Notes: a model not told the origin generated them from the sequence alone. Counted from the first letter of the stretch, positions 917 through 22,916 are shown. The stretch: DNA of 32,000 nt from Puniceicoccales bacterium (GCA_031288595.1 JAITRB010000016.1:1-32000); one strand, 5' to 3'. Translations and numbers: made by a program.

Positions 917-1003
917 TTCGCCGTCTTTGCAAGCCACAAACCGAAGGTTTGTGGCTTGGTGCCCGCGGAGCGGGCGATTCCTTTGGAATCCAAAGACGGC
1001 GAA
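917..1003. repeat. Closed multi-hairpin palindromic intergenic element, copy 1 (subfamily A)
   Basis: Outer stem 917-928 TTCGCCGTCTTT pairs with 992-1003 AAAGACGGCGAA (12 bp, perfect). Inner hairpin 1: 930-942/946-958, 13 bp, loop GAA. Inner hairpin 2: 961-966/970-975, GCCCGC-GGA-GCGGGC. Inner hairpin 3: 976-981/985-990, GATTCC-TTT-GGAATC. Confidence 0.85.
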
Positions 1004-1095
1004 TAGAACAGAGGCAGCAGAATGCGAAAATTCTCCCAGGGGCCATCGACTGAATTTCCCCTTCCTCTGCTCTTGTGTTTCGCCAAACGCTATGA

Positions 1096-1548
1096 ATGAT
1101 GAGCTTGCGCATGAAACTTCCAGTGCTAGCTGTGCTTTTTCTCTCGCCGCTATCGTTGGCAGCGACCCAGAACTTTCTGTCGCTACAGGCCCCTATTCAG
1201 AAAATTTTCCTGCCCCTGTTCGGCTTGGATGGCCGTAGGCAGTGGGAAGTCGAGGGGAAAGAGGCCAGGATGAACAGCCTCGACCGCATAGAGATTAAGG
1301 ACATGAAGATGCGCCTGTTCCTCCAAAACAAGGCGGAGACCTGGCAGGTGGAGAGCCCCTCGGCCTATGTCTTTCCCCGAAGTGCCGTGGTGGAGGGACG
1401 GGAATGGCTCTCTGTGCAGGGGCGCGGGTTCTATGCCTGGGGCTGCGATTGGCAGTGGTTCGGCAAAAATCGCCACCTGCGGATCCATCAACAGGTGGAA
1501 GTTCATTTTGTCGATGCCTCCACTTCCCCGGATTCGGAGCAGCCATGA
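1096..1548 (+). CDS. Secreted/periplasmic LptC-like protein (candidate LPS export component)
   Basis: N-terminal signal-like segment MKLPVLAVLFLSPLSLAA. Small beta-rich protein located directly upstream of lptA-like and lptB. Its stop overlaps the next start (ATGA at 1545-1548). The true start may be the ATG at 1111. Assignment rests mainly on synteny. Confidence 0.5.
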   Translation: MMSLRMKLPVLAVLFLSPLSLAATQNFLSLQAPIQKIFLPLFGLDGRRQWEVEGKEARMNSLDRIEIKDMKMRLFLQNKAETWQVESPSAYVFPRSAVVEGREWLSVQGRGFYAWGCDWQWFGKNRHLRIHQQVEVHFVDASTSPDSEQP

Positions 1549-2372
1549 TTGCCCTTAGCGGTCTCCTCCTTTTCGCCAGTTGCCGCATGAGCTTTGCGGC
1601 CAAGACCCTTCCGGCAACGGGAGCAGCAGGGGCATCAGTGGGAAACCCTTCGGGGACTGTCATCCGCAGCGATGCGATGGAGATGCGATCACCGGAAGGG
1701 GGCGATACGGTCTTTCGGTTCACGGGCGATGTTCAGGTGGAGTCCGAAAACTTTCAGGCGAGCGCTCAAGCACTCACCGCCCATCTGTCCGGCAACCCCA
1801 TTGAGGAAAATTCTCGGGAAAGGGAGGGTGCAGCAAGTCCCCACCTGACCCAGCTTCTTGCCGAAGGAGAGGTGCGGATTCAGGTTCACCAGGAAGAAGG
1901 CGAGCGCCTCGGTTCAGCCGATAGGGTCGAGATCGACCCACCCAACGACCTCTTCGTGCTCTCGGGCCATGCCCAGATTCAGCAGGAGGGGAAAGGCACC
2001 GTAGCCGGAGGGCGCATCGTCCTCGATCGCGGGCACAACTCCCTGAGCATCGAGGGCGATTTGCCGGAAGGAGAGGGCTCCCCAGCGTCTCGTCCTCGCC
2101 TAAGGCTTGAGCCCTCGGCCATTCCTGAGGCTGTTCGGGTCGGAGCGGAGGCCGAGATCCCCGCTGTGGTGACCGGAGGGGAGGCTTCCGGCTCGGCCTC
2201 TCCACCGGGCAGGGAGGAATCCATCGGGCCGGTGGCAGCCTTGCCCAAAGAAAATTGTCCGGAAGAGGAAAGGGATGGGGAGAGAGCTTCTTCTTCAAGG
2301 GGAACATCCCTAGGATCCCGCCCTTCGGCATCTGAAGGGCCGTCAGCCCCATCCGCTGCCAACGTGCCATGA
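1545..2372 (+). CDS. lptA: LptA/OstA-like periplasmic protein with a Pro/Ser/Glu-rich C-terminal tail
   Basis: The internal ATG at 1545 follows the hydrophobic leader MIALSGLLLFASC. OstA-N-like repeated pattern: IRSDAMEM...FRFTGDVQVESENFQASAQALTAHL...AEGEVRIQV...ADRVEIDPPNDLFVLSGHAQIQQEGKGTVAGGRIVLDR. ATGA overlaps occur with both neighbours. The track ORF start at 1404 is rejected because it overlaps the previous gene. Confidence 0.6.
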   Translation: MIALSGLLLFASCRMSFAAKTLPATGAAGASVGNPSGTVIRSDAMEMRSPEGGDTVFRFTGDVQVESENFQASAQALTAHLSGNPIEENSREREGAASPHLTQLLAEGEVRIQVHQEEGERLGSADRVEIDPPNDLFVLSGHAQIQQEGKGTVAGGRIVLDRGHNSLSIEGDLPEGEGSPASRPRLRLEPSAIPEAVRVGAEAEIPAVVTGGEASGSASPPGREESIGPVAALPKENCPEEERDGERASSSRGTSLGSRPSASEGPSAPSAANVP

Positions 2373-3112
2373 ATCGGGAAGAGGGGGCAGCAGGCGAGCT
2401 GAAGGCCGTGGGCCTTGCCAAGAGCTATGGGCGGCGGGAGGTGTTGCGGGGCGTCAACATCGAGTTGCGCTCCGGTGAAATCGTGGGACTGCTGGGCCCG
2501 AATGGGGCCGGCAAGACGAGCTCCTTCCACATCATCGTCGGGCTGCTCCGGCCGACGCGGGGCGAGGTCTTCCTCAACGGGATTCGCGTGACCTTTATGC
2601 CCATGTACCGCCGTGCACGGCGTGGCATCGGTTACCTTCCGCAGGAGCCCTCCATCTTCCGCCGGCTCAGCGTTGAGGACAATCTGCGTGCCGTTGCGGA
2701 GCATCTCTCGCTCACGAAGGCAGAGCAGCGGGCACGCGTCGATGCCCTGCTTGAAGACCTGGGCCTGACGGCGCTGCGGAAGCAGGAGGCCATCACCCTG
2801 AGCGGAGGTGAGCGGCGGCGTCTGGAAATCGCCCGTTCCCTCGTCCCACAACCGCGCTTCATCCTCATGGATGAGCCCTTTAGCGGTGTCGATCCGATCA
2901 ATGTCGCCGACCTGCAGCGGATGATCCTCGCCCTTCGGGAGCGCTCCATCGGCATCTTGATCACCGACCATAATGTGCGCGAGACCCTGAGTATCGTCGA
3001 CAGGGCCTATCTCATCCACGACGGCCGCGTTCTCTGCCGCGGCGACCGGCAGATGCTCCTGAATGATCCCCAGAGCCGGGAATTCTACCTCGGAGAGAAT
3101 TTTAGCCTTTAG
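2369..3112 (+). CDS. lptB: LPS export ABC transporter ATP-binding protein
   Basis: Walker A GPNGAGKTS, ABC signature LSGGERRRLEIARSL, Walker B FILMDEPFSGVDP, H-loop ITDHNVRETL. Length of 247 aa and position after lptA-like fit LptB. Confidence 0.9.
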   Translation: MNREEGAAGELKAVGLAKSYGRREVLRGVNIELRSGEIVGLLGPNGAGKTSSFHIIVGLLRPTRGEVFLNGIRVTFMPMYRRARRGIGYLPQEPSIFRRLSVEDNLRAVAEHLSLTKAEQRARVDALLEDLGLTALRKQEAITLSGGERRRLEIARSLVPQPRFILMDEPFSGVDPINVADLQRMILALRERSIGILITDHNVRETLSIVDRAYLIHDGRVLCRGDRQMLLNDPQSREFYLGENFSL

Positions 3113-3115
3113 CCC

Positions 3116-4255
3116 ATGTCCCTGCATCCAAATTCCGTTCTCGAACGCCTTCCCTCGCTGAAGCTCGTCGTCATCGACATCCGTATTCTCTGTGACACGG
3201 AGCATCCCCTGTCCCTCGGGCCTGCGATAACCCGCAGGGAGGAATTCATCTATATTCCGGACAGAGATGCCGATGAGGACACGATGGCCCTGAACTTTCG
3301 GACCGGTGACGGTTTCACCGTTCGGCATCTCTTTCAGGACATCCTGCGGCTGCCGGTGCTCGTCCTTTCAGCCGGTGCAGGGGATGAGGCGATTTATCGC
3401 CGGCGCTGTGACGCCATGCGCGTGGCAGAACTGTTCTGCGGCGTTGTGGATAAAAATGCCTTTCTCCAAAAATATGTCCAGGTGCACGATCTCGCGCTGC
3501 AGGAGATATTGCTCTTCGATAAAAATCTCTCTCCGGCCAATCCGGTGGATTATCAGTTGGCCGCTTCCGTCGGACTTTTGGTCGGCCCTCCGGAGTTCGC
3601 CTCAAGTCCACGGGTTCCCCACGTAGCCATTGCACCGGAACTCCACGGCTATATTCGGGGATTCAGCAGCCGCTACCTCGAATCGACGGGCCCCATTCTG
3701 AACTACTACGAGCAGACCCGGGAAGGCAAGACCCCACTGCCTCCCGAGCTTCTCTCCGGTCCCAGGTCGATTCGGGCACTCGTGCTGGACATCGACGGCA
3801 GCTGCACCGATGGGTGCCGGATTTTTTCCCAGGATGGCCGCGAGTGGAAGCGATTTGGGCAAAAGGACCTTCAGGCCCTGCGCCATTGGGTCGCTGCGGG
3901 GAAAATCCTATGCTTCCTTACCGGTGAGAGCAATCCGGTCGTCGTCCGCTGGGCCGAGGCCTGTGGGGTGGACTCTGAAAGGAATCTTGTCCAGGGGGCC
4001 TCCCACCAAAAGGTTCAACACCTGCAGCGCCTGGCAACGCAGTTCCAGCTGAAGCTCGGCGAAATCGCCTACATGGGCGACGATACGAATGACCTAGGCG
4101 TTCTAGAGCTCATCTCCGAGCAGAACGGTTTCGCCGCCTGTCCCCAAAATGCCGTTCCTCAGATCCTCCATATCCCCGGCATTCATCTCATGCCTTCCTA
4201 TGGCGGGAGCGGTGCCTGCGCCGATGTGGTGGCCGCTATAGCCGGGCGCACCTAG
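3116..4255 (+). CDS. Two-domain HAD protein: C-terminal KdsC-like Kdo-8-phosphate phosphatase domain preceded by a degenerate KdsC-like domain
   Basis: The C-terminal half has HAD motifs: ALVLDIDGSCTDG (DxD), FLTGES, and YMGDDTNDLGVLE with GFAACPQNA, collinear with KdsC. The N-terminal half is collinear with the same fold but has lost the catalytic residues (VVIDIRILCD, LFDKNLS). Confidence 0.7.
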   Translation: MSLHPNSVLERLPSLKLVVIDIRILCDTEHPLSLGPAITRREEFIYIPDRDADEDTMALNFRTGDGFTVRHLFQDILRLPVLVLSAGAGDEAIYRRRCDAMRVAELFCGVVDKNAFLQKYVQVHDLALQEILLFDKNLSPANPVDYQLAASVGLLVGPPEFASSPRVPHVAIAPELHGYIRGFSSRYLESTGPILNYYEQTREGKTPLPPELLSGPRSIRALVLDIDGSCTDGCRIFSQDGREWKRFGQKDLQALRHWVAAGKILCFLTGESNPVVVRWAEACGVDSERNLVQGASHQKVQHLQRLATQFQLKLGEIAYMGDDTNDLGVLELISEQNGFAACPQNAVPQILHIPGIHLMPSYGGSGACADVVAAIAGRT

Positions 4256-4364
4256 GGCGAAATAAAATATGGAATTGTTCTTAGATTTCTAAGTGCAAGA
4301 AGTGTCATTTCAGCGAAGATGGGATAAGCCATAAAAGTGACTTTCCCTCAAGGGCAATTTCCTT

Positions 4365-6116
4365 ATGAGCTATTATTTTTCCAGGTTGGAATCCAGATTA
4401 TCAGGTTTAAAGAAGAAATACAGCTCTCGTGAACTAAAGGTAGCGCGCAAGCTGCTGACCTGGACATTTTGGGAGTTCTTCAGGACGCTGCTCAGGCGAT
4501 CGTCACCTGTCGCACGCCCATTGAGTATAGAGCGGCAAGAAGATCATAGCCGGCGAGGGGACGATGAGTTGAAGATAGCCATTGCCGTCTCCGGTGGGGT
4601 CGGCGATATCCTCATGTATGGACTGGCCGTGAAGGAGATATCGAAGCACATTCGCTGCGAGCATTCGATAGACATATATGTGGATGGAGAAGATAAAAAG
4701 GCCGTGTTGGATTTTGTCTTCCGAGCGTTCCCTTTCATACATCGGTGTATGTGGGAGGGTGACCCTAAAGGCCCAAAGTTTTTGAACCATGCGCTTTCGG
4801 CGGAAGAATCGTTGTATGATGTGCAGATGAGGATGGATAGATGTACGGCTGTCATGTATTGCGATTATGGACGCGTTGATGAGAGATCTCCATGGCTGCG
4901 TCATTTTTGTAAGGAAAATGAATTGTTTTATGTGAAATATCGCAAATTTTTTGAGAATGCGCCCCTTCACCATTCGATGGTGGATCAATGGTCGATTCTC
5001 AAGAAGAAAAAGCGGATACAACAACCGGATCAGTGTCAGATCTTGGGAATTGATGATTTCAGCTGTACATTCCTAAACCTGGAACCAGCTCCTATGAAGA
5101 TCCTCTCTGAGCTAAGATTGCAGGACAGGCCCTACATAACACTTCAACGAGGGCTGGGGCGTTGCGATAGCTTGCGCGATAGTACGAGGCTCTGGCCGAT
5201 ACGCTTTTATGAAAAGTTCATCGAGTTGTTTCACGAAAAATACCCAGATATAAAGATCCTTCAACTGGGGTATTCCTCCAGTACCTGCGCATCGCTTCCA
5301 GGAATCGATATCGATCTCATCGGGAAAACTTCACTGGAGGAAGTGGCCATCCTATTGAAGCATTCCCTGTTTCACCTCGATGGGGATGCCGGGATGGTGC
5401 ATATGAAAAGATTTCTCAATGGTCGATCGATTGTCCTTTTCGGGACGACGCCGACTGAAATGCTGGGGTATCCGGGAAACGTTAATATCACCGGCAATGG
5501 GTGCCATAGCTGGTGCGAGTGGGTATCCAATGACTGGAATAAAACCTGCTTGCGTGGCTTTGCCGAAGCTCCCTGCATGGCCTCCATCACGCCGGAAATG
5601 GTCATGAACGCCGCCGACGGCCTGTTGCGGGAACGTGAGAATTACTCCTATGCCCTTGAAGAAGAGGGCATTGGGGAAGATATTGTCGCCCACATCCTCC
5701 AGTACTGCCGGGATCCAAACGCCAAAATTGTCGATATTTTCAACCGGAAGGGTTTGGAACTCGCCCGGATATTGCGGAAAATTTTTGCCGATGTCACCGT
5801 CTTTGACCTGAACTTTCAGTTCGATTCCTTCGCGAAGGCCGAGGCGGCAGGACTGAGGCTGGAGTGCGGCTGCCTCTACAACATCGCCCTGCCGGATGAT
5901 TCCAGCGATGGGGTGATCTGGCAGAACGGCGATCCCTCGGTAGCGCAGCTCCGTTATGTCTTGAAGGAACTGTTTCGAATCCTGAAACCGGACGGATTCC
6001 TATTCGTCTCCGGTGTGAGCTTCCAGCCGGAAGATCTTTTGCCCTTTGGCATCGAGGTGGGCGAAGGAAAGTTCTCTCCGGAGGGCACGAGCGTTTTTAG
6101 GAAAAGGCTGGGATGA
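4365..6116 (+). CDS. Glycosyltransferase family 9 (heptosyltransferase-like) fused to a C-terminal class I methyltransferase-like domain
   Basis: GT9-like N-terminus LKIAIAVSGGVGDILMYGLAV. GT9-like C-lobe RLWPIRFYEKFIELF...KILQLG...LIGKTSLEEVAILLKHSLFHLDGDAGMVHMKRFLNGRSIVLFGTTP. The C-terminal about 150 aa end with the methyltransferase-type LKELFRILKPDGFLFVSG, but the SAM-binding glycine motif is degenerate. The gene is visibly more AT-rich than its neighbours. Confidence 0.6.
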   Translation: MSYYFSRLESRLSGLKKKYSSRELKVARKLLTWTFWEFFRTLLRRSSPVARPLSIERQEDHSRRGDDELKIAIAVSGGVGDILMYGLAVKEISKHIRCEHSIDIYVDGEDKKAVLDFVFRAFPFIHRCMWEGDPKGPKFLNHALSAEESLYDVQMRMDRCTAVMYCDYGRVDERSPWLRHFCKENELFYVKYRKFFENAPLHHSMVDQWSILKKKKRIQQPDQCQILGIDDFSCTFLNLEPAPMKILSELRLQDRPYITLQRGLGRCDSLRDSTRLWPIRFYEKFIELFHEKYPDIKILQLGYSSSTCASLPGIDIDLIGKTSLEEVAILLKHSLFHLDGDAGMVHMKRFLNGRSIVLFGTTPTEMLGYPGNVNITGNGCHSWCEWVSNDWNKTCLRGFAEAPCMASITPEMVMNAADGLLRERENYSYALEEEGIGEDIVAHILQYCRDPNAKIVDIFNRKGLELARILRKIFADVTVFDLNFQFDSFAKAEAAGLRLECGCLYNIALPDDSSDGVIWQNGDPSVAQLRYVLKELFRILKPDGFLFVSGVSFQPEDLLPFGIEVGEGKFSPEGTSVFRKRLG

Positions 6117-6150
6117 GGCTCAAAATCTGAGGCTTGTATTCCAAGAGAAC

Positions 6151-6226
<76 letters not shown>

Positions 6227-6323
6227 AGGAAAGAGCGTCGAGGGAGGCGAATGCCCTGGGGAAGTCAATGCTTTTACGGCGGAGGGGGATTGGGCGTATA
6301 GGGCCTAGCTTGGCTTGTTTTTC

Positions 6324-6418
6324 GGGGCTGGCTTTCGATTCCGGAGGAATCGGGCCCGCGAAGCGGGCCGCCCGGAGGGAAATGCCTCCGGCATTTCCTC
6401 CCGGGCAAAGCCAGCCCC
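6324..6418. repeat. Closed multi-hairpin palindromic intergenic element, copy 2 (subfamily A)
   Basis: Outer stem 6324-6335 GGGGCTGGCTTT pairs with 6407-6418 AAAGCCAGCCCC (12 bp, perfect). Hairpin 1: 6336-6342/6346-6352, CGATTCC-GGA-GGAATCG. Hairpin 2: 6353-6359/6363-6369, GGCCCGC-GAA-GCGGGCC. Hairpin 3: 6371-6386/6390-6405, 16 positions with one A-C mismatch and one G-T, loop TCC. Confidence 0.85.
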
Positions 6419-6689
6419 ACACCAAAAACCCAGCCTCCGAACTGAGCCTTCACCGATCGGTCCCTTTCGTGTCGATCGGTCCCCGTCTATCGACCGTCAT
6501 CCGGTGCGCTGAAGCATACCCTACATGCTCTAAGGGAGGGATGACTGCGATAGCTGCGGTGAGAGGAAGCAGAGCTGGTCAAAGTGTGAAATCCCCGGCT
6601 TTTCTTTCCCCGATATTTTCCCTTGAAAGCCACCGGGGATCGACTGAATCGGAAGCGGAGCAATCGCTAAAGAACCGGTCAGAAGAGCC

Positions 6690-8192
6690 ATGTCGCATTA
6701 CGAGGCCAGTATGGAGGAGATCATCCAGCTCTGCCGGCGGCGAGGGTTTCTCTTCCCGTCATCCGAAATCTACGGCGGCCTGGCCGGCTTCTTCGACTAC
6801 GGGCCACTGGGCTCCCAGATGCGGAAGAACATCAAAGATCTCTGGTGGTGTTCCATGACGCAGCTGCGCCCGGACATCGTCGGCATCGATACGGCCATCA
6901 TCCTGCATCCGCAGGTTTGGAAGAGCTCTGGCCATGTGGATGGGTTTTCGGATCCGATGGTGGATTGCCGGAGCTCGAAGATGCGCTACCGGGCCGACCA
7001 GCTCTTCTTCGCCCGGATTAGGGTCGATGGCGAGCAGATCGGCTACATCTCGGTGTTGGAAGAGAAGGACATGCAGGCCCGGGCGGAGGAGGAGGCCAAG
7101 AAACTGAAGCGCCGGCTTGCCAAACAGGGGGAATTGGAAGCTATTCGGCTCATTCCCTACAGCGAAGCCCGTGGAGAGGAATACGCGCTGATCCCCTCGC
7201 CGGCGACCGGAGAGCCGGGGAGCCTCACGGCCCCACGGGCCTTTAATCTCATGTTCCAGACCCGGGTCGGGGCATTGGAAGACACGAGTTCCGTCGCCTA
7301 TCTCCGACCGGAAACGGCCCAAGGGATCTTCATCAACTTCAAAAATGTCCTGGATTCGACGCGGCTCAGGCTCCCCTTCGGCGTCGCCCAGATCGGACGT
7401 TCCTTTCGCAACGAGATCACGCCGAGGAACTTCTGCTTTCGCTCGCGGGAGTTCGAGCAGATGGAGTTGGAATTCTTCATCGATGACTCGGAGGAGTCCT
7501 GGAAGCACTGGCATGCATACTGGATCGAGGAGCGCCTGCGCTGGCACCGAGCTTTGGGGATCCGTCCGGAATTATTGGACACTGAAATCCATCCCAGGGA
7601 AAAGTTGGCTCACTACGCCCGGGCATGTACAGATATCTGCTTCCGCTATCCCTTCGGCATTCAGGAGCTGGAGGGCATTTCCGCCCGGGGAGATTTCGAT
7701 CTCCGGCAGCACCAGAAGGGCAGCCGTGTATCGCTGGAGTATTTCGATGAGGCCACCCACAGGCGCTTCCTGCCGCACGTCATCGAACCGGCCCTCGGGG
7801 TCGACCGGCTCTTCCTGGCCCTGCTCTGCTCGGCCTATGACGAGGACGAGGTGGAGGGGGAGAAACGCCAAGTCCTACGCCTGCATCCGGCCGTCGCACC
7901 CATCAAGGCCGCCGTCTTTCCATTGGTCAAAAATAAACCGGAGCTGGTCGCTATGGCCGAAGGGCTTTTTCAAAGCCTGCGGAGGAAATGGCCGGTGACT
8001 TACGATGCTTCCGGGGCCATCGGGCGCCGCTACCGCCGGATGGACGAGGTCGGGACACCCTTCGGCATCACCGTGGACTTTCGTTCGTTGGAGGACATGA
8101 CTTTCACTCTGCGGGAGCGCGACAGTACTCGCCAGGCCCGTCTCTTGGAGGCCGAGCTCATCGCCACCATCGACGCTAGGCTGGAACTTTAG
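6690..8192 (+). CDS. glyQS: Glycine--tRNA ligase (homodimeric class II type)
   Basis: N-terminus MEEIIQLCRRRGFLFPSSEIYGGLAGFFDYGPLGSQMRKNIKDLWW. Class II motifs FRNEITPRNFCFRSREFEQMELEFF and GVDRLFLALL. A C-terminal anticodon-binding domain is present. The start could be the ATG at 6690 or at 6711. Confidence 0.95.
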   Translation: MSHYEASMEEIIQLCRRRGFLFPSSEIYGGLAGFFDYGPLGSQMRKNIKDLWWCSMTQLRPDIVGIDTAIILHPQVWKSSGHVDGFSDPMVDCRSSKMRYRADQLFFARIRVDGEQIGYISVLEEKDMQARAEEEAKKLKRRLAKQGELEAIRLIPYSEARGEEYALIPSPATGEPGSLTAPRAFNLMFQTRVGALEDTSSVAYLRPETAQGIFINFKNVLDSTRLRLPFGVAQIGRSFRNEITPRNFCFRSREFEQMELEFFIDDSEESWKHWHAYWIEERLRWHRALGIRPELLDTEIHPREKLAHYARACTDICFRYPFGIQELEGISARGDFDLRQHQKGSRVSLEYFDEATHRRFLPHVIEPALGVDRLFLALLCSAYDEDEVEGEKRQVLRLHPAVAPIKAAVFPLVKNKPELVAMAEGLFQSLRRKWPVTYDASGAIGRRYRRMDEVGTPFGITVDFRSLEDMTFTLRERDSTRQARLLEAELIATIDARLEL

Positions 8193-8272
8193 GGCTCATC
8201 CGCTGGCCTCGGGTTAGAGCTGCGCTTGAGGGGCGTTTGGGAAAATTTCGAGTCCCTTGGTCTCCTGATTTG

Positions 8273-8372
8273 TTTCCTGCCGGCTTTACCGGGAAGCCAG
8301 GATGGGAATCCTGGCTTCCCGGAGGCCCGCTGCGCGGGCCCGATGCCGAAGGCATCGAAAGCCGGCAGGAAA
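8273..8372. repeat. Closed multi-hairpin palindromic intergenic element, copy 3 (subfamily A)
   Basis: Outer stem 8273-8287 TTTCCTGCCGGCTTT pairs with 8358-8372 AAAGCCGGCAGGAAA (15 bp, perfect). Hairpin 1: 8289-8303/8308-8322, 15 bp, loop GGGA. Hairpin 2: 8324-8330/8334-8340, GGCCCGC-TGC-GCGGGCC. Hairpin 3: 8341-8347/8351-8357, CGATGCC-GAA-GGCATCG. Confidence 0.85.
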
Positions 8373-8517
8373 GCAGAAAAGACCCCACAGCTCCGGATCT
8401 TCCCCAATATCCTTTCTCCCTCAGTTCCTGAAATGCAGCGCAGGGCCATCTTCCCGAAGTGATTTTCCGTTGACCCAGGGGAAAATTCTTCCTTCCTTCG
8501 CCGCTGAAGACAGGAGC

Positions 8518-9647: not shown

Positions 9648-9681
9648 CGAGTCGACCTTTTTAGGTCGACTCGTCGTTTAT
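9648..9681 (+). terminator. Candidate intrinsic terminator (10 bp stem plus an interrupted T tract)
   Basis: CGAGTCGACC (9648-9657), loop TTTTTA, GGTCGACTCG (9664-9673), followed by TCGTTTAT. The T tract is weak. Confidence 0.3.
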
Positions 9682-11252: not shown

Positions 11253-11354
11253 GGCGCGATGGCCCGGTCCCCCAGCGGCTCCGCCGCTGGGGGACCAGGG
11301 CCATCCTCGCTCCGCGAGGATGGCCCCTTTGCTTGGCAAAGGGGCCATCGCGCC
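11253..11354. repeat. Closed multi-hairpin palindromic intergenic element, copy 4 (subfamily B)
   Basis: Outer stem 11253-11265 GGCGCGATGGCCC pairs with 11342-11354 GGGCCATCGCGCC (13 bp, perfect). Hairpin 1: 11266-11279/11283-11296, 14 bp, loop TCC. Hairpin 2: 11298-11310/11314-11326, 13 bp, loop TCC. Hairpin 3: 11327-11332/11336-11341, CTTTGC-TTG-GCAAAG. Confidence 0.85.
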
Positions 11355-14112: not shown

Positions 14113-14220
14113 GCGCGACGGCCCCTTGTCAGAGCCAAGGTGGACCCCGAGGGGCGCGTAGCGCCCCTCGGGGTCCGCCGTTGGCGCGCGGCGCAGCCGC
14201 GCGTCAACGGGCCGTCGCGC
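14113..14220. repeat. Closed multi-hairpin palindromic intergenic element, copy 5 (subfamily B)
   Basis: Outer stem 14113-14124 GCGCGACGGCCC pairs with 14209-14220 GGGCCGTCGCGC (12 bp, perfect). First hairpin is weak (CTTG...CAAG, 14125-14139). Second hairpin: 14142-14157/14161-14176, 16 bp perfect, loop GTA. Third hairpin: 14183-14192/14196-14205, 10 bp with one G-T, loop GCA. Confidence 0.75.
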
Positions 14221-15691: not shown

Positions 15692-15864
15692 CTCTTTTTA
15701 TTCCGAACCCGCAGCCGGGGAGATTTTAGTCCTACTGTAGTTTAGGTGCCGTTATCTCTCCACGACTGCGCGGAATATTTTAAGAGGCTTTGCAAGTGGA
15801 GACAAGGTTTTTGGGCTAGGGGTCTAGCTATTGCTGTGCATGGAAATTTTTGTTGAAATTGGGG

Positions 15865-18075
15865 ATGTTTTCCGCTTCCCTTTCAGCCATGTCCTGCCAA
15901 TACACGATGGTTTTTTCAAGCGAGGAGAGTGCATCTCCGGTGGCTTCGGGAGCCGAGACGGGGATTCCCAAACCTGAGGCTGCCCCAGCGGTCTCCTCTC
16001 GGGCTTCCGCCCATCCCTTTCTGGACAGATCCTGGCCGATTCTCTGGTCTCAGCTTCGGCCTGAGTATGTGGTGGGGGATATACGCCTAGCCCTTGCGGA
16101 GGCCAGGGCGGACTTGGAGACGCTGGAGCGGATCCCGCTCGAGCAGCTCCACTGGGAGAATACGCTCGAGGAGCTGATCCAGTTCGATCAAAATCTTTCC
16201 GATGCCTGGGCGAAAATCAAGCACCTGAACACTGTCTGCGACTCAGAGGCCCTGCGGGCTGCCTACCTCGAAGTTCTGCCGGAGGTGACACAGTTCTTCG
16301 CCTCTATCCCTTTTCGGCCCAAGCTCTGGAAGCTCATCCAGGGCTATGCGGCTACGGAGGAGGCCGAGAATCTCTCTCCCTTGCGCGCGCGCTACCTACA
16401 GCGAACACTAGAGGCTTTCATCGATAGCGGGGCCGACTTACCTCCGGAGAAGAAGGAGCGGATTCTGGAAATCGAGCAGCGGCTCTCCCAGCTCACGAAC
16501 CAGTTCGGCAAAAATGTGCTGGATGCGAAGAATGCTTGGGCTTGTGAGGCGAGGGTAGAGGAGCTACGCGGACTGCCGGAATCCGTTCTTGAAACGCTAC
16601 CAACCGGTGCATCTCCGGCGACCAGGCGGCTGAGCCTGCAGGCACCTTGTCTGGGTCCCTGCCTGCAGTACCTCGAGAACCGCGAGCTGCGGCAGAAACT
16701 CTGGGAGGCTAATTTGGCCGTCGGTCGGGAGGATCCTTACGACAACCGACCCCTGATTCGGGAAATCCTGGCCCTGCGGGAGGAATATGCCCATATCCTG
16801 GGCGAGAAAACCCACGCTGACTGCGTCCTGCGACGCCGCATGGCCAAGGAGGGGCAGCGGGCACTGTCCTTCATCGAAGACCTTCACCGGCGCGTCGAGG
16901 CATTCGCGCTTCGGGATAGTCGAACCCTGCAGGACTTTCGGGATGAGGAAATGGGGAGTCGAGAAGCCTTGAAACCCTGGGATGCCAGTTTCTGGAGCGA
17001 GAAATTGCGGCAAAAGCTTCATCATTTCGATGAAGAGGCGCTGCGGCCCTATTTCTCCATCGATGTGGTGTTTCAGGGTATGTTCTCCGTCGTACAGAAG
17101 CTCTACGGCATCTGCGTTCGGGAGCGTCGGACCCATGTTGAAGCCGAGGCCGCTGGTCCCGACAGCGTTCCCGTATGGCAGGAGGATGTCAGGTTTTTCG
17201 AGGTCTATGAGGCATCCGGCAACTACATCGGTGCGTTCTACGCGGACTGCTTCCCTCGAGCGAGCAAGCGAAGCGGGGCCTGGATGGATGAGATTATAGT
17301 CAGTCGGCGCGAGCGCGGTGGCTGCTACCGCTATCCCGTCGGCGTCTTCTGCGCTAACCTCAGCCCAGCGGCCCATGGCCGTCCAGCCCTATTGACCCAC
17401 GACGAGGTCGCAACGCTCTTCCACGAATTCGGCCACCTGCTCCACAGCCTCTTCGGGCAAGCGGATATTGCTGAGCTCAACGGAGTCCATGTCGCCTGGG
17501 ATTTCGTCGAACTGCCTTCCCAGCTGATGGAGAATTTCTGCTGGGATCGGAAAAGCCTAGATCTCTTCGGGAGGCATTGCGAAACGGGGGAAAGTATTCC
17601 CGAAAAACTGTTTCAGGCGATGAAATCAGCCAGAAACCACCTCTCGGGCCTATCTATGATACGTCAGCTCTGTTTCAGCCGGCTGGACCTTGAACTCCAC
17701 CAACACTACGCTTCCTATCGGGATGAGCATTGGGAAAAAACGCTACAGGCACTGCTCGCCCCATACCAGCCACCCTGGAGCGTCAACAGCCCGAGCACCG
17801 TGGCGCAGTTCAGCCACATTTTCGACGGCGGTTACGACGCAGGCTACTACTCCTACCTCTGGGCGGAGGTATTGGAGGCAGATGCCTTCGGTGCCTTCGA
17901 GGCCCATGGGGTTCTCGATGCCGGGACGGGCGAGCGCTTCCGCCGATGCATCCTAAGCCAGGGCGACCTGCGCGATGCGGACCAGCTCTTCCGCGATTTC
18001 ATGGGCCGCGATCCGGATCCGACGGCCCTCCTCCGCCGCGAAGGCCTCTGGGAATCAGCGCCGGAGCTGAAGTGA
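15865..18075 (+). CDS. M3 family zinc metallopeptidase (oligopeptidase A / peptidyl-dipeptidase Dcp-like)
   Basis: Zinc motif TLFHEFGHLLH with a downstream E (VELPSQLMENF). The length and the C-terminal GGYDAGYYSYLWAEVL motif are typical of M3A. The start is uncertain: TTG at 15850, or ATG at 15865 or 15889. Confidence 0.9.
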   Translation: MFSASLSAMSCQYTMVFSSEESASPVASGAETGIPKPEAAPAVSSRASAHPFLDRSWPILWSQLRPEYVVGDIRLALAEARADLETLERIPLEQLHWENTLEELIQFDQNLSDAWAKIKHLNTVCDSEALRAAYLEVLPEVTQFFASIPFRPKLWKLIQGYAATEEAENLSPLRARYLQRTLEAFIDSGADLPPEKKERILEIEQRLSQLTNQFGKNVLDAKNAWACEARVEELRGLPESVLETLPTGASPATRRLSLQAPCLGPCLQYLENRELRQKLWEANLAVGREDPYDNRPLIREILALREEYAHILGEKTHADCVLRRRMAKEGQRALSFIEDLHRRVEAFALRDSRTLQDFRDEEMGSREALKPWDASFWSEKLRQKLHHFDEEALRPYFSIDVVFQGMFSVVQKLYGICVRERRTHVEAEAAGPDSVPVWQEDVRFFEVYEASGNYIGAFYADCFPRASKRSGAWMDEIIVSRRERGGCYRYPVGVFCANLSPAAHGRPALLTHDEVATLFHEFGHLLHSLFGQADIAELNGVHVAWDFVELPSQLMENFCWDRKSLDLFGRHCETGESIPEKLFQAMKSARNHLSGLSMIRQLCFSRLDLELHQHYASYRDEHWEKTLQALLAPYQPPWSVNSPSTVAQFSHIFDGGYDAGYYSYLWAEVLEADAFGAFEAHGVLDAGTGERFRRCILSQGDLRDADQLFRDFMGRDPDPTALLRREGLWESAPELK

Positions 18076-18117
18076 TTCGGCCCATGGGGTCGTGGAGAGT
18101 CTTGGGTTTGGGAGTTT

Positions 18118-18214
18118 TGGGTTGGCTTTCCAGAGAGGGGAAAGGACTTCGTCCTTTCCCCTCCCTGCGGCCCGCGCAGCGGGCCTGATGCCTCCGGCAT
18201 TAAAAGCCAACCCA
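18118..18214. repeat. Closed multi-hairpin palindromic intergenic element, copy 6 (subfamily A)
   Basis: Outer stem 18118-18129 TGGGTTGGCTTT pairs with 18203-18214 AAAGCCAACCCA (12 bp, perfect). Hairpin 1: 18135-18147/18151-18163, 13 bp, loop TTC. Hairpin 2: 18169-18175/18179-18185, GGCCCGC-GCA-GCGGGCC. Hairpin 3: 18188-18192/18196-18200, ATGCC-TCC-GGCAT. Confidence 0.85.
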
Positions 18215-18342
18215 CCCAGAAACCCTCTCGCCCCTTCATTTCTTCAAGTCCTTCTGGATCCCCGAAGCAGCCCTGTCCCTGCCCCATCACTTGAAATTTA
18301 AGCCTTGCTTTCCAGAGGAGACAGTTTTCTTTTGCCCAGATC

Positions 18343-18657
18343 ATGAAGGCCATCATCCGGATACAGGGAAAACAGCTGACCGTTTCGGAGGGAAATATCT
18401 TTTCCGTCAACCGCTATGCCGGTTCTCAGACCGGCGACCCGGTGGAGGTGAAGGAGGTTCTCCTTGTCGGTGAGGGCCCAGAAGCAAAGCTCGGTGATCC
18501 CTATGTGGCCGGTGCCTGCGTGCGCCTGAACATTCTCGAGAACAAACGCGGAAAGAAGGTGATCGTCTTCAAGAAGAAGCGCCGCAAGGGCTACGAGCGC
18601 AAACGGGGCCACCGCCAGGAACTCTCGGTCGTTCGGGTGGAATCGATCAGGATGTGA
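18343..18657 (+). CDS. rplU: 50S ribosomal protein L21
   Basis: MKAIIRIQGKQLTVSEGNIFSVNR...VLLVGEG...LGDPYV...KVIVFKKKRRKGYERKRGHRQ matches the L21 pattern. It sits directly upstream of rpmA. Confidence 0.95.
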   Translation: MKAIIRIQGKQLTVSEGNIFSVNRYAGSQTGDPVEVKEVLLVGEGPEAKLGDPYVAGACVRLNILENKRGKKVIVFKKKRRKGYERKRGHRQELSVVRVESIRM

Positions 18658-18692
18658 GGGGAAATTTAGATTTTTAGGAAAGAAGTTCTCCG

Positions 18693-18947
18693 ATGGCACA
18701 TAAGAAGGGACAGGGAACCTCGCGCAATGGTCGGGATAGCCCGGGGCAACGCCTGGGGGTGAAGAAGTACGATGGCGAAACCGTGCGCGCGGGCCATATC
18801 CTGATGCGTCAGTGTGGTACAAAGGTCCATCCGGGAAGAAATGTCGGCTGCGGTAGGGATTTTACCCTCTTCGCCCTGATCGACGGAAAAGTCCGCTGGG
18901 ACGGCCCCCATCGTAAGGTCCACGTAAGCCCGCTATCCACACCTTGA
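18693..18947 (+). CDS. rpmA: 50S ribosomal protein L27
   Basis: [69 protein letters not shown] is the canonical L27 sequence pattern. Confidence 0.95.
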
Positions 18948-20414
18948 GCATTGGCTGGGGGAGGAGGGTTTCTCCTTTTCTATCTTGGCCTTGTATTGCT
19001 CATGGCCATGGCATTATTAAATGCCAGAGTCGTTGCGGAATAATTGAGCTTCAGTTCTTCTGCGAGTCAAGCTCAGTGAGCTGCTCGAGAGTGAGAACTG
19101 ACATAGGGGTCTCTTCTGTTCTCTGAGTGGAGCAGATGGAGGGCCTTTACCTCAGGTAAAGGCTTGATTGATTCCATGTGCCAGGCGCACTGCTGGCGCG
19201 AGTATGGGGTAGATCAGTGGGCGAGGGGATGCTGGCCATTGGCCTTGGTGCTTCTGCTTAAGCACCTGGCCATTTTCGCTCTCGGCTTTGAGTCCAGAAG
19301 ACAGAGCATTGCAGGGAAATATCAATCTCTCCAGTAGATTTTCCCTAACCCGTCTGCTCTACAATCTAGTCGGCGATGGGAAGGCCAACACAATATCAAG
19401 GGCGCGAGTCCCGTGAGTGAAGTGGCGCCATCGAGTGATTTTTGATTTCTTCGCGAAGAAGCAAATCCGCTTTGTCTATAAAAAGGTTTTGTCCGTAAAT
19501 GAAGGGGGTTTTGTCCAGGACCCCTGTTTTTCCCGAGAAGCTACTGGGTGCTGTAAATGACGCTCATCATGCGTTAGGCAGGGACTGTTTTTCATCTCTC
19601 TGATCCCTCCGCCATCCCCCTCGGCGCATCGATGCTGCATGGCTGGGAATCGCGCCTGGCGGTGGAGGGCAGGTCCCTGAAAGCATTCCGGATCATCCTT
19701 TTTCGGTGATGAGTGCCGTTTTCTTCTTCCCTATGGATAAACAGGTCGCTCTGGGAGGAACTTTTACGTCGAACGTTTCTGTGGTTTGGAAAATCCAGGA
19801 TCGCCTGGGAGTCCTTGCTCTCTGGCTTTGCGAAGCTCGCGCGGGAATCTATTACCTCAATGAGCAGAAAATAATACAGCTCTGCCGAGCACTTTGTATG
19901 GGTATCTATCGGCTATGCCTGAATCAGTTTCCGCCTGAGTGCCGGGAAGCATTCTACAGCGACTTTAAACGGCGAGAGTTTCCCGGGTCATTCCGAAAAA
20001 TTTCCTCCGCAGATCACGGCTGTGTTTAAGCTATCTCGAGCCATGAAAGCAGTTTGCGCATTTCTCAGAGCCGATCCTCTGGGAGAAGTCCATAGCCGAG
20101 CGATACGCTCTGACGAAGATGGGAGCAAAGGATACGACGAACCAAGGCTTCGGAGTACAGAATATTCCGGGCGGAGCGCGTATTTAAAGGGATTTGGAGG
20201 ATGCACTTTATGCTGCGCTGGGTCTATCGCTGCCACCTCCGGAGCAGCAAGAGAAACCCTCGCCGCCGGGATATAGCCCCAGCTAGACCCACTGGGCTGC
20301 CCCTATGGACAAAGCCCATAATCCCTATTCAGGGCAGACTAGCTGCCAGGGAATCGCTATTCCCTATGGTACACGGGAGAGAATCTGCTTGTCCCAAGGG
20401 GCGAGGGGCTTTGC

Positions 20415-21257
20415 ATGGATAGGGTGGAATCCAGTTTACTGCGGCGTGATCCTCAAAAACTGCTCCTGCTGGCGGGTCCCTGTTCGCTGGAAAGCTGGGA
20501 AATCTCGTCCACTGTGGCGGCATTTCTCGCTGGTTTGCTGAGAGAGTATCCGGATCTGCAGATCGTTTTCAAGGGGTCATTCGACAAGGCGAATCGTTCC
20601 TCCCTTCACAGCGCTCGAGGTGTCGGCCTTCAGCGGGGACTGGAGATCCTCAGGGAGGTAAAGGGTAGGTATGCCCTTCCCGTCACCAGCGACTTCCATG
20701 TACCGGAACAGGCAGAAGCGCTGGCGGAGGTCTGCGAGGTGCTGCAGGTTCCGGCCTTTCTGTGTCGCCAGACCGACATGCTGGTCGCCGCGGCTAGAAC
20801 GGGACGGACGGTCTCGGTCAAAAAGGGACAGTTTCTCTCTCCGAAGGAGATGCGCCACGTCATCGAGAAGCTGCAGGGATCAGGCGCTCGGGAAATCTGG
20901 CCAATGGAACGCGGGGCTTCTTTCGGCTACCAGAACCTCGTCGTCGACATGCGGAGTTTTGCCATCATGAGGGCCTTTGCCTCCACCGTCCTCTTCGACG
21001 CAACCCACAGTGTGCAGATTCCAGGTGGCAGCGCCGGTGTGACGCAGGGCGAGCGCTTCTTCACCCCTCTTCTCGCCAGGGCTGCTTTGGCCGCCGGTGC
21101 AAATGGACTTTTCTTCGAGGTGCATCCACGTCCTGCCCAGGCCACCTGCGATGCAGCTAACCAGTGCCCCATGGAGGATTTCGAGGGCATTCTTCAGCAG
21201 TGCTTGGCCACGTGGAGGCTCTGCCGCACCTGGGCGGAAAAGGAAACAACTGCCTGA
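20415..21257 (+). CDS. kdsA: 2-dehydro-3-deoxyphosphooctonate aldolase (Kdo-8-P synthase), metal-dependent type
   Basis: LLLAGPCSLES has Cys at the position that is Asn in metal-independent enzymes. Other motifs: FKGSFDKANRSS, LQVPAFLCRQTDML, VKKGQFLSP, FDATHSVQIPGG. Confidence 0.95.
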   Translation: MDRVESSLLRRDPQKLLLLAGPCSLESWEISSTVAAFLAGLLREYPDLQIVFKGSFDKANRSSLHSARGVGLQRGLEILREVKGRYALPVTSDFHVPEQAEALAEVCEVLQVPAFLCRQTDMLVAAARTGRTVSVKKGQFLSPKEMRHVIEKLQGSGAREIWPMERGASFGYQNLVVDMRSFAIMRAFASTVLFDATHSVQIPGGSAGVTQGERFFTPLLARAALAAGANGLFFEVHPRPAQATCDAANQCPMEDFEGILQQCLATWRLCRTWAEKETTA

Positions 21258-21360
21258 GAGAATAGGGGCGGTCATCGCGTCGGCAGTGGCTGCCGCTTGG
21301 ATGTTTGCCCTTTACCTTCTGATATTTGACAACAGAATAGCATCGCCGATGAAGGGGAGG

Positions 21361-22761
21361 ATGGAGCATAGAGGTTTCTCATTGATGGAGCTCTTGGTCG
21401 TCATGACCGTGATCGCCCTCCTGTCCGCTCTGCTCTTGCCGGCGATACGCGCAGTATTGGGAGGAGCTCAGCGAACAAAGGCATTAGCTTACATGAAGCA
21501 GATCGCCCGGGCCTATGTTCACTGTACATACAATGCGGAGAGCGGCTTGCAGGGGATCACTGGAGGAGCAAATGCAACGGCTCATGACTGGATCCGAGTA
21601 TTGGCCGAACAGCATTATTGTAATGATCCGCGAGTGCTGATGTTCGACTGCGATTATCTCGTCAAAGCCGCTGGAAATCTTCCGCGGCGCGTATGGGATA
21701 CGGCTTCTCAAAGCCTAGATAGGGATTTTTTCCAGAAACCATTGAGTATCGCAGTTGTCGCAGGATCTTTTTCCACGGATGCCGCTATCCCCATCTGCTG
21801 GACGCGCGGGCTCCAGGAGGATGGCTATTGGGCCAAAGCAGAGGGCGATCGAGGAGGGGTGTTCGGAACTTCGGGTGGGATCATCGCCTTCACGGATGGT
21901 TCTGCCCAATGGTTCGATGATCTCCACGGAGAGAAAGCCCCGTTGAGCAAATGGGCTACAGGGGAACGCAGTTCCAATATTTACGAATGCCTCCCGCCGG
22001 GAAGCTGCGTTTTGGATTGGCGGGGAGTCTTGTACGCAGCTGGCCCTAGCTCTTCCGGAGGCGGGGCCCATGCTCCAGAACCAGAGTCTCAGGTGGCAGG
22101 TGACGAAAATGGGTTTCCCATGGATCCTGTGGAAGGAATTGAGCCTTCTCCAGAGCCCTCTGTTGGCGAATCCTATGCTGAGGATGATGGGGCAGCAGAT
22201 ATTCCTTACGACTCTTGGCCAGTTGAAATAGATTTCGCAAATGCCCTCTCGTTGAGGCGGAAGGCGCAGGCATGCGGCGTCGGTGCGGTGCTTGAAAATA
22301 TCTTGGATGTCTATGCCAATTTGCGCTCTGATGTGGCAAATGCATACATCGATTCCTCTCTCTCGCAGGCTTTCGAGTCTCTGGCCGGTACCCTGGAGAG
22401 CTTTGGCATTAATTTTGATACTTCAGAAGAGGTGCAAGCGTGCTTTTGGTCTGGATTTTTAGGCGATGAGCACGCCATGTACACCGATAATACGGACGTG
22501 CTCGGTCGCGATCCGAGGCAGGATGCCGCCGATGCGTTGACTATTTTGAACAGTGTTAATGCGGCCATCGGTGGTGCCTATGACAGCTTGGATAGGGCGC
22601 AGAAGTCCCAATTCGCAGCATTGCTGGAGGCATTTTCCTCGGGAGATGAGGCGTCGGGGATCGATTTCGATTCGGATGGAGCCAAGCTGGCCCAGGCCTA
22701 TCTCGACAATCAGGTCTGGATCACGGCAATGAAGCCCGTAGCCTTGCAAGAGGAGGGATAG
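21361..22761 (+). CDS. Prepilin-type N-terminal cleavage/methylation domain protein (pseudopilin-like) with a long acidic C-terminal extension
   Basis: ATG at 21361 is preceded by GGGGAGG. The leader MEHRG|FSLMELLVVMTVIALLSALLLPA is a classic type IV prepilin signal. The later GGIIAFTDGSAQWF resembles the C-terminal DG motif of the PVC-type pseudopilin family. The last about 230 aa are Asp/Glu-rich and look helical. Upstream track starts (21097, 21349) overlap kdsA or lack the short-leader logic. Confidence 0.7.
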   Translation: MEHRGFSLMELLVVMTVIALLSALLLPAIRAVLGGAQRTKALAYMKQIARAYVHCTYNAESGLQGITGGANATAHDWIRVLAEQHYCNDPRVLMFDCDYLVKAAGNLPRRVWDTASQSLDRDFFQKPLSIAVVAGSFSTDAAIPICWTRGLQEDGYWAKAEGDRGGVFGTSGGIIAFTDGSAQWFDDLHGEKAPLSKWATGERSSNIYECLPPGSCVLDWRGVLYAAGPSSSGGGAHAPEPESQVAGDENGFPMDPVEGIEPSPEPSVGESYAEDDGAADIPYDSWPVEIDFANALSLRRKAQACGVGAVLENILDVYANLRSDVANAYIDSSLSQAFESLAGTLESFGINFDTSEEVQACFWSGFLGDEHAMYTDNTDVLGRDPRQDAADALTILNSVNAAIGGAYDSLDRAQKSQFAALLEAFSSGDEASGIDFDSDGAKLAQAYLDNQVWITAMKPVALQEEG

Positions 22762-22801
22762 CAGGAGCTTGGCCTATGTGCTGAATTTGGTTGTTCACGC
22801 A

Positions 22802-22916
22802 GCCTTTGGAGCCCTTCGGGCTCCGGCGCGCGGCCCGCGCGGCCGCGTGCCGCGCGCTCCCGCGTGCCGCGTGCCGAGGAAAAGAAACCAGTTTCTTTTC
22901 CTCGGCACGCAAAGGC
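22802..22916. repeat. Closed multi-hairpin palindromic intergenic element, copy 7 (divergent, four inner hairpins)
   Basis: Short outer stem GCCTTT(G) 22802-22808 pairs with (C)AAAGGC 22910-22916. Inner hairpin 1: 22808-22814/22818-22824, GGAGCCC-TTC-GGGCTCC. Inner hairpin 2: 22825-22835/22841-22851, 11 bp with one G-T, loop CGCGC. Inner hairpin 3: small, 22853-22856/22861-22864. Inner hairpin 4: 22870-22888/22891-22909, 19 nt arms, effectively about 18 bp. Confidence 0.65.

Follow-up and report, generated by a model that had tools for sequence, protein, structure and literature searches.

Dispersed intergenic repeats with a closed three-hairpin layout in a Puniceicoccales clade of Verrucomicrobia

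What kind of element are the seven palindromes that lie between genes in a 32,000-nucleotide stretch of the genome of a Puniceicoccales bacterium (GCA_031288595.1, JAITRB010000016.1:1-32000; 'the window' throughout, meaning this whole stretch)? An initial annotation, made from the sequence alone, had described them as multi-hairpin units with conserved architecture but divergent sequence. Here we find that the seven loci are dispersed repeats with conserved modules, rather than independent inventions of one structure, and that they belong to an element family that is lineage-specific and very abundant in one Puniceicoccales clade of Verrucomicrobia. With roughly even confidence, we read them as copies of a new class of repeat, similar to repetitive extragenic palindromic (REP) elements and to MITEs (miniature transposable elements with inverted repeats), whose unit is a four-way junction and which acts as folded nucleic acid.

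All seven intervals fold, at the coordinates listed below, into a closed four-way junction in which a closing stem encloses three hairpins, and they do so on both strands and with RNA or DNA parameters alike. Their RNA minimum free energies range from -59 to -100 kcal/mol. Compared with 200 dinucleotide shuffles per sequence (both strands, RNA and DNA parameters), none of which matched the fold energy of its locus, the RNA z-scores lay between -7.1 and -12.0 for the + strand and between -8.6 and -12.3 for the − strand; with DNA parameters they ran from -7.8 to -12.2. Copies 1-6 are closed by a stem of 12-15 bp, copy 7 by one of only 7 bp, its outer part having decayed. Three hairpins are enclosed in every copy, with 0-4 bases unpaired at the junction and loops of mostly 3 nt. 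For the last copy the annotation had given a short outer stem, which we recover, and four hairpins, which we do not: there are three branches, the middle one an irregular composite hairpin. A strict perfect-hairpin chain finder caught only four of the seven loci, and a closed-multiloop detector was used instead (local folds with a closing stem of at least 6 bp, at least two branches and at most -0.55 kcal/mol per nt). In the window this detector returned the seven loci and one weak, imperfect match in coding DNA (2127-2242), while twelve dinucleotide shuffles of the whole window yielded four weak two-branch matches in total and not one with three branches; the remaining spacers of the window hold nothing comparable. 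From the shuffle z-scores and the shuffled windows, the closed three-hairpin layout is thus real and far beyond chance. The seven elements are as follows, with scores from the covariance model (CM) and family numbers as described further on.

917..1003, + strand: element 1, family I, 105 nt past the gpsA stop; closing stem TTCGCCGTCTTT/AAAGACGGCGAA, long hairpin GCAAGCCACAAACC, a GCCCGC hairpin and a GATTCC hairpin; CM score 68 bits on the + strand.
6324..6418, − strand: element 2, family I, reversed (on the + strand the hairpins run short, medium, long), located in the spacer from which tRNA-Phe (−) and glyQS (+) diverge, its arms extended imperfectly at 6308-6335 and 6407-6434; CM score 94 bits on the − strand.
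8273..8372, + strand: element 3, family I, with a 15-bp closing stem, 80 nt past the glyQS stop; CM score 89 bits.
11253..11354, strand unassigned: element 4, family II, closing stem GGCGCGATGGCCC/GGGCCATCGCGCC, between yebC (−) and rlmD (−).
14113..14220, strand unassigned: element 5, family II, closing stem GCGCGACGGCCC/GGGCCGTCGCGC, with a weak short hairpin, 13 nt past the glgA (−) stop and before yidC (−).
18118..18214, + strand: element 6, family I, 42 nt past the oligopeptidase A stop and 129 nt before rplU; CM score 90 bits.
22802..22916, − strand: element 7, family I, reversed, outer stem decayed (7 bp), 40 nt past a pilin-like gene and before infA; CM score 63 bits on the − strand (22796-22922).

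The description of conserved architecture and divergent sequence holds for the architecture but not for the sequence, as five of the seven have common hairpins and a common inner closing stem. These five make up family I, comprising copies 1, 3 and 6 together with copies 2 and 7 in the opposite orientation; its closing stem reads ..G(G/T)CTTT / AAAG(C/A)C.., and its hairpins are a long, variable and perfect one, GGCCCGC-NNN-GCGGGCC, and GATKCC-NNN-GGMATC. Copies 4 and 5 (11253, 14113) form family II, with a closing stem of their own (GCGCGAYGGCCC). Element 4 is 90% identical to L043 7036-7142 (L numbers designate loci of related genomes) and was scored at 41 bits by the family-I model, largely through the common structure; family-II relatives of element 5 lie at L009 3905 and 6475, L039 146 and L011 2922. 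Across the window and 59 loci of the clade we recognize at least four sequence families with the one architecture, the others being family III (GGGGCCCCGGGAC.., 77 nt) and family IV (..CCGGCGATCC..). Assembly by independent, nested insertion of free-living mini-palindromes can be set aside, the two conserved hairpins being essentially never found alone.

How far the family extends was asked by a pattern search for the two conserved hairpins joined, over 596 Gb with one genome per species. The pattern matched 66 stretches, of which 59 lie in three metagenome-assembled genomes (MAGs) of Puniceicoccales bacterium (52 in Pcl387_bin38, four in Pcl387_bin136 and three in Ct408_bin121); the remaining seven are one-off matches in GC-rich MAGs that are unrelated. 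The window and bin38 are syntenic, with approximately 80-90% nucleotide identity in genes. Run over the 377 kb made up of the window plus these 59 loci, the detector gave 144 distinct strong elements of three hairpins or more, the window's seven included; their median length is 99 nt, with a median closing stem of 13 bp and a median of one unpaired junction base. Exactly three hairpins were present in 141 of the 144; in the few cases called with two or four branches, the element is a three-hairpin one that has gained an additional fold from its flank or is cut at a contig end. Within the window, a CM built from 49 family-I copies recovered exactly the seven loci described, with no other match below E = 0.1; it gave 223 matches over both strands (approximately 140 loci) in 403 kb of clade DNA, and none in 696 kb of controls from other Verrucomicrobia and unrelated GC-rich DNA. 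The annotation's expectation of further copies is therefore amply confirmed by pattern, detector and CM in the related MAGs. Beyond the clade the elements were not seen: closer relatives were reached through homologues of glycyl-tRNA synthetase (GlyRS; protein search and contig look-ups), and relatives with only 63-69% GlyRS identity carry no such elements, while a metagenome scan with GlyRS reached relatives at no more than 63% identity, also without them. A blastn search with element 3 found no match among plasmids and phages. Rfam 15 at the gathering threshold called only tRNA-Phe (6151-6226), with no match at the elements, and a permissive scan (E up to 5) gave nothing credible, the sole overlap being mir-1203 (E = 1.1) within element 5. 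A literature search likewise found no description of a closed three-hairpin repeat layout, in agreement with the annotation, which could place the layout in no described family.

If the copies are related by descent, what keeps them folded? Among the 49 aligned family-I copies, 90.6% of cells were paired as against 75.7% when shuffled, and sliding the partners by one to three columns lowered paired cells to 40-55%. Both sides had changed in 29 of 45 pairs; the closing stem was 99% paired, with 8 of 13 pairs covarying and no one-sided changes. In part, this covariation goes back to subfamily differences that were inherited rather than to many independent events. Orthologous sites give stronger evidence. 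Elements 1, 2, 3 and 6 occupy the same sites in bin38, within spacers that are otherwise unalignable. At four-fold degenerate sites of seven flanking genes, the window and bin38 differ at 295 of 1170 positions (74.8% identical), whereas paired positions of these four elements differ at only 24 of 326 (7.4%; Fisher p = 5e-14 against four-fold sites) and unpaired positions at 24 of 51 (47%; p = 1e-3). Stem differences between orthologues are mostly compensatory, as in the long hairpin of element 2 and in the closing stem and long hairpin of element 6, where the orthologue (L024 2626-2724) carries compensatory double changes; element 1 differs from its bin38 orthologue (L047 3444-3534) in three loop or junction bases only. 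Elements 2 and 3 are kept in L147 (90% GlyRS identity), and the locus-specific long hairpin of element 3 is kept in both L040 and L147. In the comparison with L148, where four-fold sites are saturated (51% identity), 68 of 76 paired positions of element 2 are identical; its long hairpin is near the family consensus, so this similarity may instead stem from independent acquisition or conversion. The fold is intact in every orthologue examined, and decayed copies are almost absent among the CM matches. Watson-Crick pairing in the four helices is actively maintained while loops and flanks change freely, and the claim that pairing is retained through compensatory change is upheld by both the alignment and the orthologues.

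On which strand this maintenance acts can be asked of the pairs themselves. Among 6228 predicted pairs, 97.9% are Watson-Crick, with 104 G.T, 26 A.C mismatches and 14 other 1x1 mismatches. Where the neighbouring genes are co-directional, G.U pairs number 24 for the sense and 28 for the antisense strand. Orientation (long hairpin first versus last) relative to the upstream gene is random (27 vs 26 and 33 vs 29). Triloops make up 80% of loops, almost all of them GNA, its complement TNC, TTT or AAA, and in the oriented family-I alignment GNA and TNC are about evenly used in the middle (21/17) and short (19/20) hairpins. In element 3, the long hairpin has the loop GGGA in the window, and L147 has the exact reverse complement, TCCC; L148 and L149 show TCCC and GGGA, respectively, in the corresponding loop. 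At element 2, indels are symmetric in both arms. Flipped loops and symmetric indels in both arms are products of replication template switching at quasi-palindromes, and we infer that those seen here are its footprint. The constraint looks strand-symmetric, because of the 98% Watson-Crick pairing, the lack of a transcribed-strand G.U bias, the random orientation and the flipping loops. Selection on structure at the RNA or single-stranded DNA/cruciform level, as the annotation had it, agrees with the keeping of pairing, but the RNA level is not favoured by these features, nor by the position of copy 2 upstream of both candidate divergent promoters.

The elements are also dispersed, and they turn over. 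Element 1 has near-identical paralogues at other loci (L008 2077-2163, L049 5216-5304 and L049 6617-6703), which are 92-96% identical with the 'variable' hairpin and the whole closing stem included, so that the closing stem is part of the unit and not of the target. One spacer may hold up to four elements, and at L024 1643-1802 two family-I elements are nested or overlapping, one inserted beside the GGCCCGC hairpin of the other, with a partial copy of the GGCCCGC hairpin, its loop flipped, on the far side. Comparison of orthologous spacers, which the annotation had called for, shows the element-2 site to be polymorphic: the window, L147, L040 and L148 carry the element there, and L149, L151 and L154 have a clean empty site with the sequence GAAGTCAATG|ATTTTCCCTTGAAA. 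The filled allele has 200-420 extra nt, more than the element alone, and its flanks are degenerate arm copies, the 5' one rich in GT and the 3' one in AC. At the element-3 site all six genomes examined are occupied, by two different subfamilies; the element-1 site in bin136 holds another subfamily in the opposite orientation; and in bin38 the place of element 7 is taken by a family-III element (L034 5240-5318), also closed and with three hairpins. bin38 also has elements that are absent from the window, for example after kdsA. Flanks beyond the closing stem show no more complementarity than their composition predicts.

Several further features of the copies and their surroundings were recorded. 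The boxes GAAGTCAATG and ATTTTCCCTTGAAA (window 6260-6275 and 6610-6625) are conserved in the tRNA-Phe/glyQS spacers of all six relatives and adjoin each other directly where element 2 is missing; they may be divergent promoter elements, and element 2 would then lie upstream of both. Tandem or degenerate repeats of closing-stem arms, such as three to four of GGGGCTGGAT, lie just outside some elements (L045 ~7570-7616; window 6290-6323 and 6419-6450), GT-rich 5' and AC-rich 3' on both strands. Some elements of the related MAG carry G-quadruplex-type G-run/C-run inserts in their hairpin loops, for example GGGCGGGGTGGGTGGGCG, by which the unit grows to 115-190 nt (L034 6936-7052; L041 6629-6743 and 1835-1993; L050 2612-2734 and 6851-6971; L053 3916-4040; L013 3135-3291); none of the window copies has one. 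Two elements (L053 2948-3046 and 3916-4040) lie deep within long open reading frame (ORF) calls, beyond 5' extensions, and may be intragenic insertions like the REPs reported from Opitutus terrae, or ORF miscalls.

With respect to genes, the placement that the annotation had described is confirmed by gene calls: six of the seven window copies separate co-directional, functionally unrelated genes (gpsA/lpt genes, glyQS/NTPase, yebC/rlmD, glgA/yidC, oligopeptidase A/rplU and pilin-like gene/infA), one lies between the divergent tRNA-Phe and glyQS, and the lower-GC type III secretion system (T3SS) block (24.8-32 kb) is without any. Crude gene calls across the sampled loci give 67 co-directional, 22 convergent and 14 divergent contexts. 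The elements are not intrinsic (Rho-independent) terminators, as no U-tract follows them: among the bases at +1 to +7, whichever strand is taken, only 3-10% are T and up to 51% are A. Canonical intrinsic-terminator-like sites are themselves not enriched in the window over shuffles (19 vs 18.3 and 18 vs 18.0), and the terminator scan matched the elements twice, both times at internal hairpins. A single clean hairpin, GAGTCGACC-TTTTTA-GGTCGACTC, lies in a convergent spacer at 9648-9673.

The elements behave like REPs or MITEs but fail the defining tests of both. REPs, bacterial interspersed mosaic elements (BIMEs) and REPINs, known from Enterobacteria, Pseudomonas and the REP-rich verrucomicrobial relative Opitutus terrae (PMC3733652), are likewise high-copy, GC-rich intergenic palindromes found mostly in co-directional or convergent spacers, with several families per genome, clustering, and pairing kept despite sequence change, and roles have been proposed for them at both the DNA and the RNA level. 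The abundance is also REP-like, at approximately 140 copies in ~400 kb of loci whose choice is biased to copies. A REP, however, is a single imperfect hairpin of 20-40 bp with an unpaired GTAG or CGTC tag (PMC3733652), and a REPIN is two inverted REPs folding as one long hairpin, whereas the elements described here are ~100 nt (87-115 nt in the window) and close four near-perfect helices into a junction. In 16 kb of element sequence GTAG (12) and CTAC (10) are depleted against ~63 expected, and CGTC (41) and GACG (46) are neither enriched nor placed at hairpin feet; with the tags absent and the unit not a single hairpin, a GTAG- or CGTC-tagged REP is ruled out. Bacterial MITEs (Correia, ERIC, BOX and QMITE; PMC10969869, PMC3184786) resemble the elements in being non-coding, ~100 nt long and dispersed, with terminal inverted repeats – here the closing stem of 12-17 bp, identical in the element 1 paralogues – filled and empty sites, and stable predicted transcript structure. 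They differ in having target-site duplications, in being usually AT-rich, in deriving from a recognizable insertion sequence (IS) and in folding as one long imperfect hairpin; the present elements lack target-site duplications, are GC-rich and place a three-hairpin junction in unrelated sequence families, and neither a RAYT gene nor an autonomous IS with ends like theirs was seen in the ~400 kb sampled.

Resemblances outside these two groups concern form. In the inverted terminal repeat (ITR) of adeno-associated virus (AAV), an outer stem A-A' surrounds the hairpins B-B' and C-C', each with a 3-nt loop; it flips and flops, acts as folded single-stranded DNA and, placed at the ends of the virus's linear genome, takes the form of a T-shaped (three-way) junction that Rep recognizes. 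As a closed palindrome of palindromes with flips, this parvoviral ITR is the closest analogy of form, and of form only: the present elements are four-way junctions at more than 100 internal chromosomal sites of a bacterium. Integron attC sites are imperfect palindromes of ~60-130 nt between co-directional genes, act as folded single-stranded DNA, and come with conserved R/L boxes (RYYYAAC...GTTRRRY), extrahelical bases, cassettes and an integrase. The elements share with attC (such as the Vibrio VCR) the palindrome between co-directional genes, but their ends read ..GGCTTT/AAAGCC.. or GCGCGAYGGCCC, their stems are perfect without conserved bulges, their neighbours are housekeeping genes, and no integrase occurs in the window; attC is therefore rejected. 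LIMPs of Lobosphaera mitochondria (PMC4524435) are dispersed palindromes with the loop in both orientations and arms of short repeated units, to be compared with the arm repeats flanking element 2 and those at L045, and DNA-cruciform or RNA-processing roles have been proposed for them; they are mitochondrial single hairpins made up of a pentanucleotide repeat, with no multi-hairpin junction.

Read as a new repeat class acting as folded nucleic acid, the elements would matter through the shape they fold into and not through the strand that is read. The first candidate is folded DNA, be it hairpins that single strands form in the course of replication or transposition, or a cruciform that the duplex extrudes, to which we give precedence because of the strand symmetry and because the conserved element 2 lies upstream of both candidate promoters. 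The DNA fold would be what is copied, corrected (arm templating arm, by template switching) and recognized during spread. In mRNA, the fold would probably also make a very stable boundary or 3'-end protector in either orientation, as REP elements do; this part is suggested because most copies lie in presumably transcribed spacers between unrelated co-directional genes and canonical terminators are not enriched. There is precedent for REPs as mRNA boundaries and 3'-end protectors (PMC3733652), and for HU-dependent roles of REP cruciforms and REP RNAs (PMC4550694).

A number of observations weigh against this reading. Direct repeats in the flanks have length 0 in 89 copies, 1 in 33 and 2 in four, as expected by chance, so target-site duplications are lacking, nor do the flanks of the copies show a conserved motif. 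The ~400 kb sampled contains no repeated (multi-copy) transposase-like ORF family and no IS200-like ORF, the latter sought with an approximate TnpA query sequence; with no GTAG or CGTC tag either, the annotation's suggestion of a target for a REP-associated (RAYT) transposase is not supported. The low divergence at paired sites could come partly from ectopic conversion to the family consensus and arm-to-arm correction rather than from host-level selection, and long-hairpin divergence is very uneven among loci, roughly 0 to 50%. Element 2, for all its position upstream of both candidate promoters, is absent from three relatives, so a host function is not needed everywhere. The role at the RNA level is purely one that we infer, and the bases following the elements, A/C-rich and T-poor, are the opposite of an intrinsic terminator. 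The 59 loci were picked for containing a copy, which biases density estimates upwards, and the gene calls behind the context statistics are crude, being based on a codon-usage score.

Best placed among the alternatives, and possible though rather unlikely, is that the elements are purely selfish, MITE-like mobile DNA without host function, the fold being the substrate of some transposase or recombinase, and frequent overwriting by active copies, together with palindrome self-correction, keeping copies intact. Much of the turnover agrees with this: subfamilies have near-identical copies at unrelated loci, elements nest and cluster up to four per spacer, orthologous sites are filled, empty or held by a different family, orientation is random, and hairpin loops take foreign inserts. 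It fits poorly with the failure to find a transposase, target-site duplication or parent element in ~400 kb, and with locus-specific long hairpins, such as that of element 3, that are kept in three genomes at 25% neutral divergence; decayed copies, moreover, are almost absent, which is unusual for non-autonomous elements.

Ranking next, and offered tentatively, is a DNA-level device of a kind not known before: a self-folding, strand-symmetric mimic of a four-way (Holliday-like) junction, whose exact three-hairpin geometry would be read by a junction-specific protein. Candidates for such a reader are transposases or recombinases, enzymes of the resolvase type, and architectural proteins such as HU or RuvA. 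If true, this would explain why unrelated families converge on one geometry, why constraint is equal on both strands, how an apparently untranscribed copy keeps its fold, and why copies replace one another at sites.

Unlikely, and placed after both of these, is a host-selected RNA element that punctuates transcription units in both directions (as a factor-dependent terminator, an RNase processing site or a barrier to 3'-exonucleases) and is active only once transcribed. Its appeal lies in the contexts, with six of the seven window copies, and ~86% of those classified, in co-directional or convergent spacers and the copies separating functionally unrelated genes, as well as in the lack of enriched canonical terminators in the window, the extreme predicted RNA stability (-59 to -100 kcal/mol) and the REP precedent (PMC3733652). 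The T depletion after the element, with no U-tract, counts against it, as do G.U pairs that are as rare as A.C mismatches and without sense-strand bias, the random orientation, and the ~14% of copies in divergent spacers, among them the conserved element 2 upstream of both candidate promoters.

We consider it very improbable that the elements are independent small RNA genes or cis-regulatory RNAs such as a tRNA-like cloverleaf, a retron-like non-coding RNA (ncRNA) or a riboswitch. Retron ncRNAs have a closing stem around short hairpins and one long variable hairpin, and are single-copy with an adjoining reverse transcriptase. The plan of stem and hairpins does recall them, and a four-way junction is superficially like a tRNA cloverleaf. 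Neither ARAGORN nor Rfam calls the elements, however, which removes a tRNA-like gene; no reverse transcriptase adjoins any window copy or appears as a domain in any window ORF examined, and copies number more than 100, which removes a retron. There are no conserved unpaired nucleotides, loops vary and flip, both strands fold equally well, and the more than 140 copies are randomly oriented. Chance folding of GC-rich DNA, or an assembly or amplification artefact (chimeric inverted repeats), has a negligible chance of being correct even though the host DNA has a high GC content and whole-genome amplification is known to produce artefactual palindromes, as shuffles never reproduce the layout, GC-rich unrelated DNA gives no CM matches, and the same orthologous sites, with compensatory differences, recur in independent NCBI, JGI and ENA assemblies, which refutes an assembly artefact.

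The genes of the window, mapped with NCBIfam, Pfam and ARAGORN, are these.

..811: gpsA.
1096-6116: hypothetical ORF, lptA-like, lptB, kdsC-like and GT9/methyltransferase ORF.
6151-6226, − strand: tRNA-Phe.
6690-8192: glyQS.
to 9108: AAA_28 NTPase.
9953-11176, − strand: rlmD.
11555-~14100, − strand: yebC, then yidC.
14234-15691, − strand: glgA.
15850-18075: oligopeptidase A.
18343-18657: rplU.
20415-22761: kdsA, then pilin-like ORF.
to 24744: infA, then mnmE.
24818-32000, − strand: T3SS block with an SseC-like translocator, an LcrH/SycD chaperone and a 1456-aa ORF.

An imperfect 18-bp inverted repeat with GATGCC at 3256-3339, in the N-terminal part of the kdsC-like ORF, reaches only E = 0.11 with the family CM and is probably not an element. 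Some 1.4 kb past rplU/rpmA (18950-20400) is without a confident gene call or Rfam match, and is only 66-70% identical to the related MAG. The lower-GC T3SS block (− strand) holds the SseC-like translocator at 25890-27002, the LcrH/SycD chaperone at 27008-27553, and ORFs of 330 and 1456 aa, neither of which has a Pfam or NCBIfam match.

Known dispersed palindromes of bacteria (REP, REPIN, MITE) are single hairpins; here roughly one element occurs per few kilobases across a clade, and at least four unrelated families have one layout, a closing stem of approximately 13 bp, exactly three hairpins and hardly any unpaired bases. This points to a constraint on the four-way-junction shape, undescribed for a genomic repeat. 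What interests us most, and calls for explanation, is that sequence families unrelated to one another show the one exact junction geometry again and again. For practical purposes, the CM and the hairpin pattern can serve as a marker of this uncultured Puniceicoccales clade, and the elements account for fragmented assemblies and spurious ORF calls over these spacers. For the biology of the clade they raise the questions of which factor would recognize a shape of this sort, in the chromosome or in a transcript of a bacterium, by what means palindromes that are perfect stay so, and whether organisms without canonical terminators separate their transcription units with elements of this kind.

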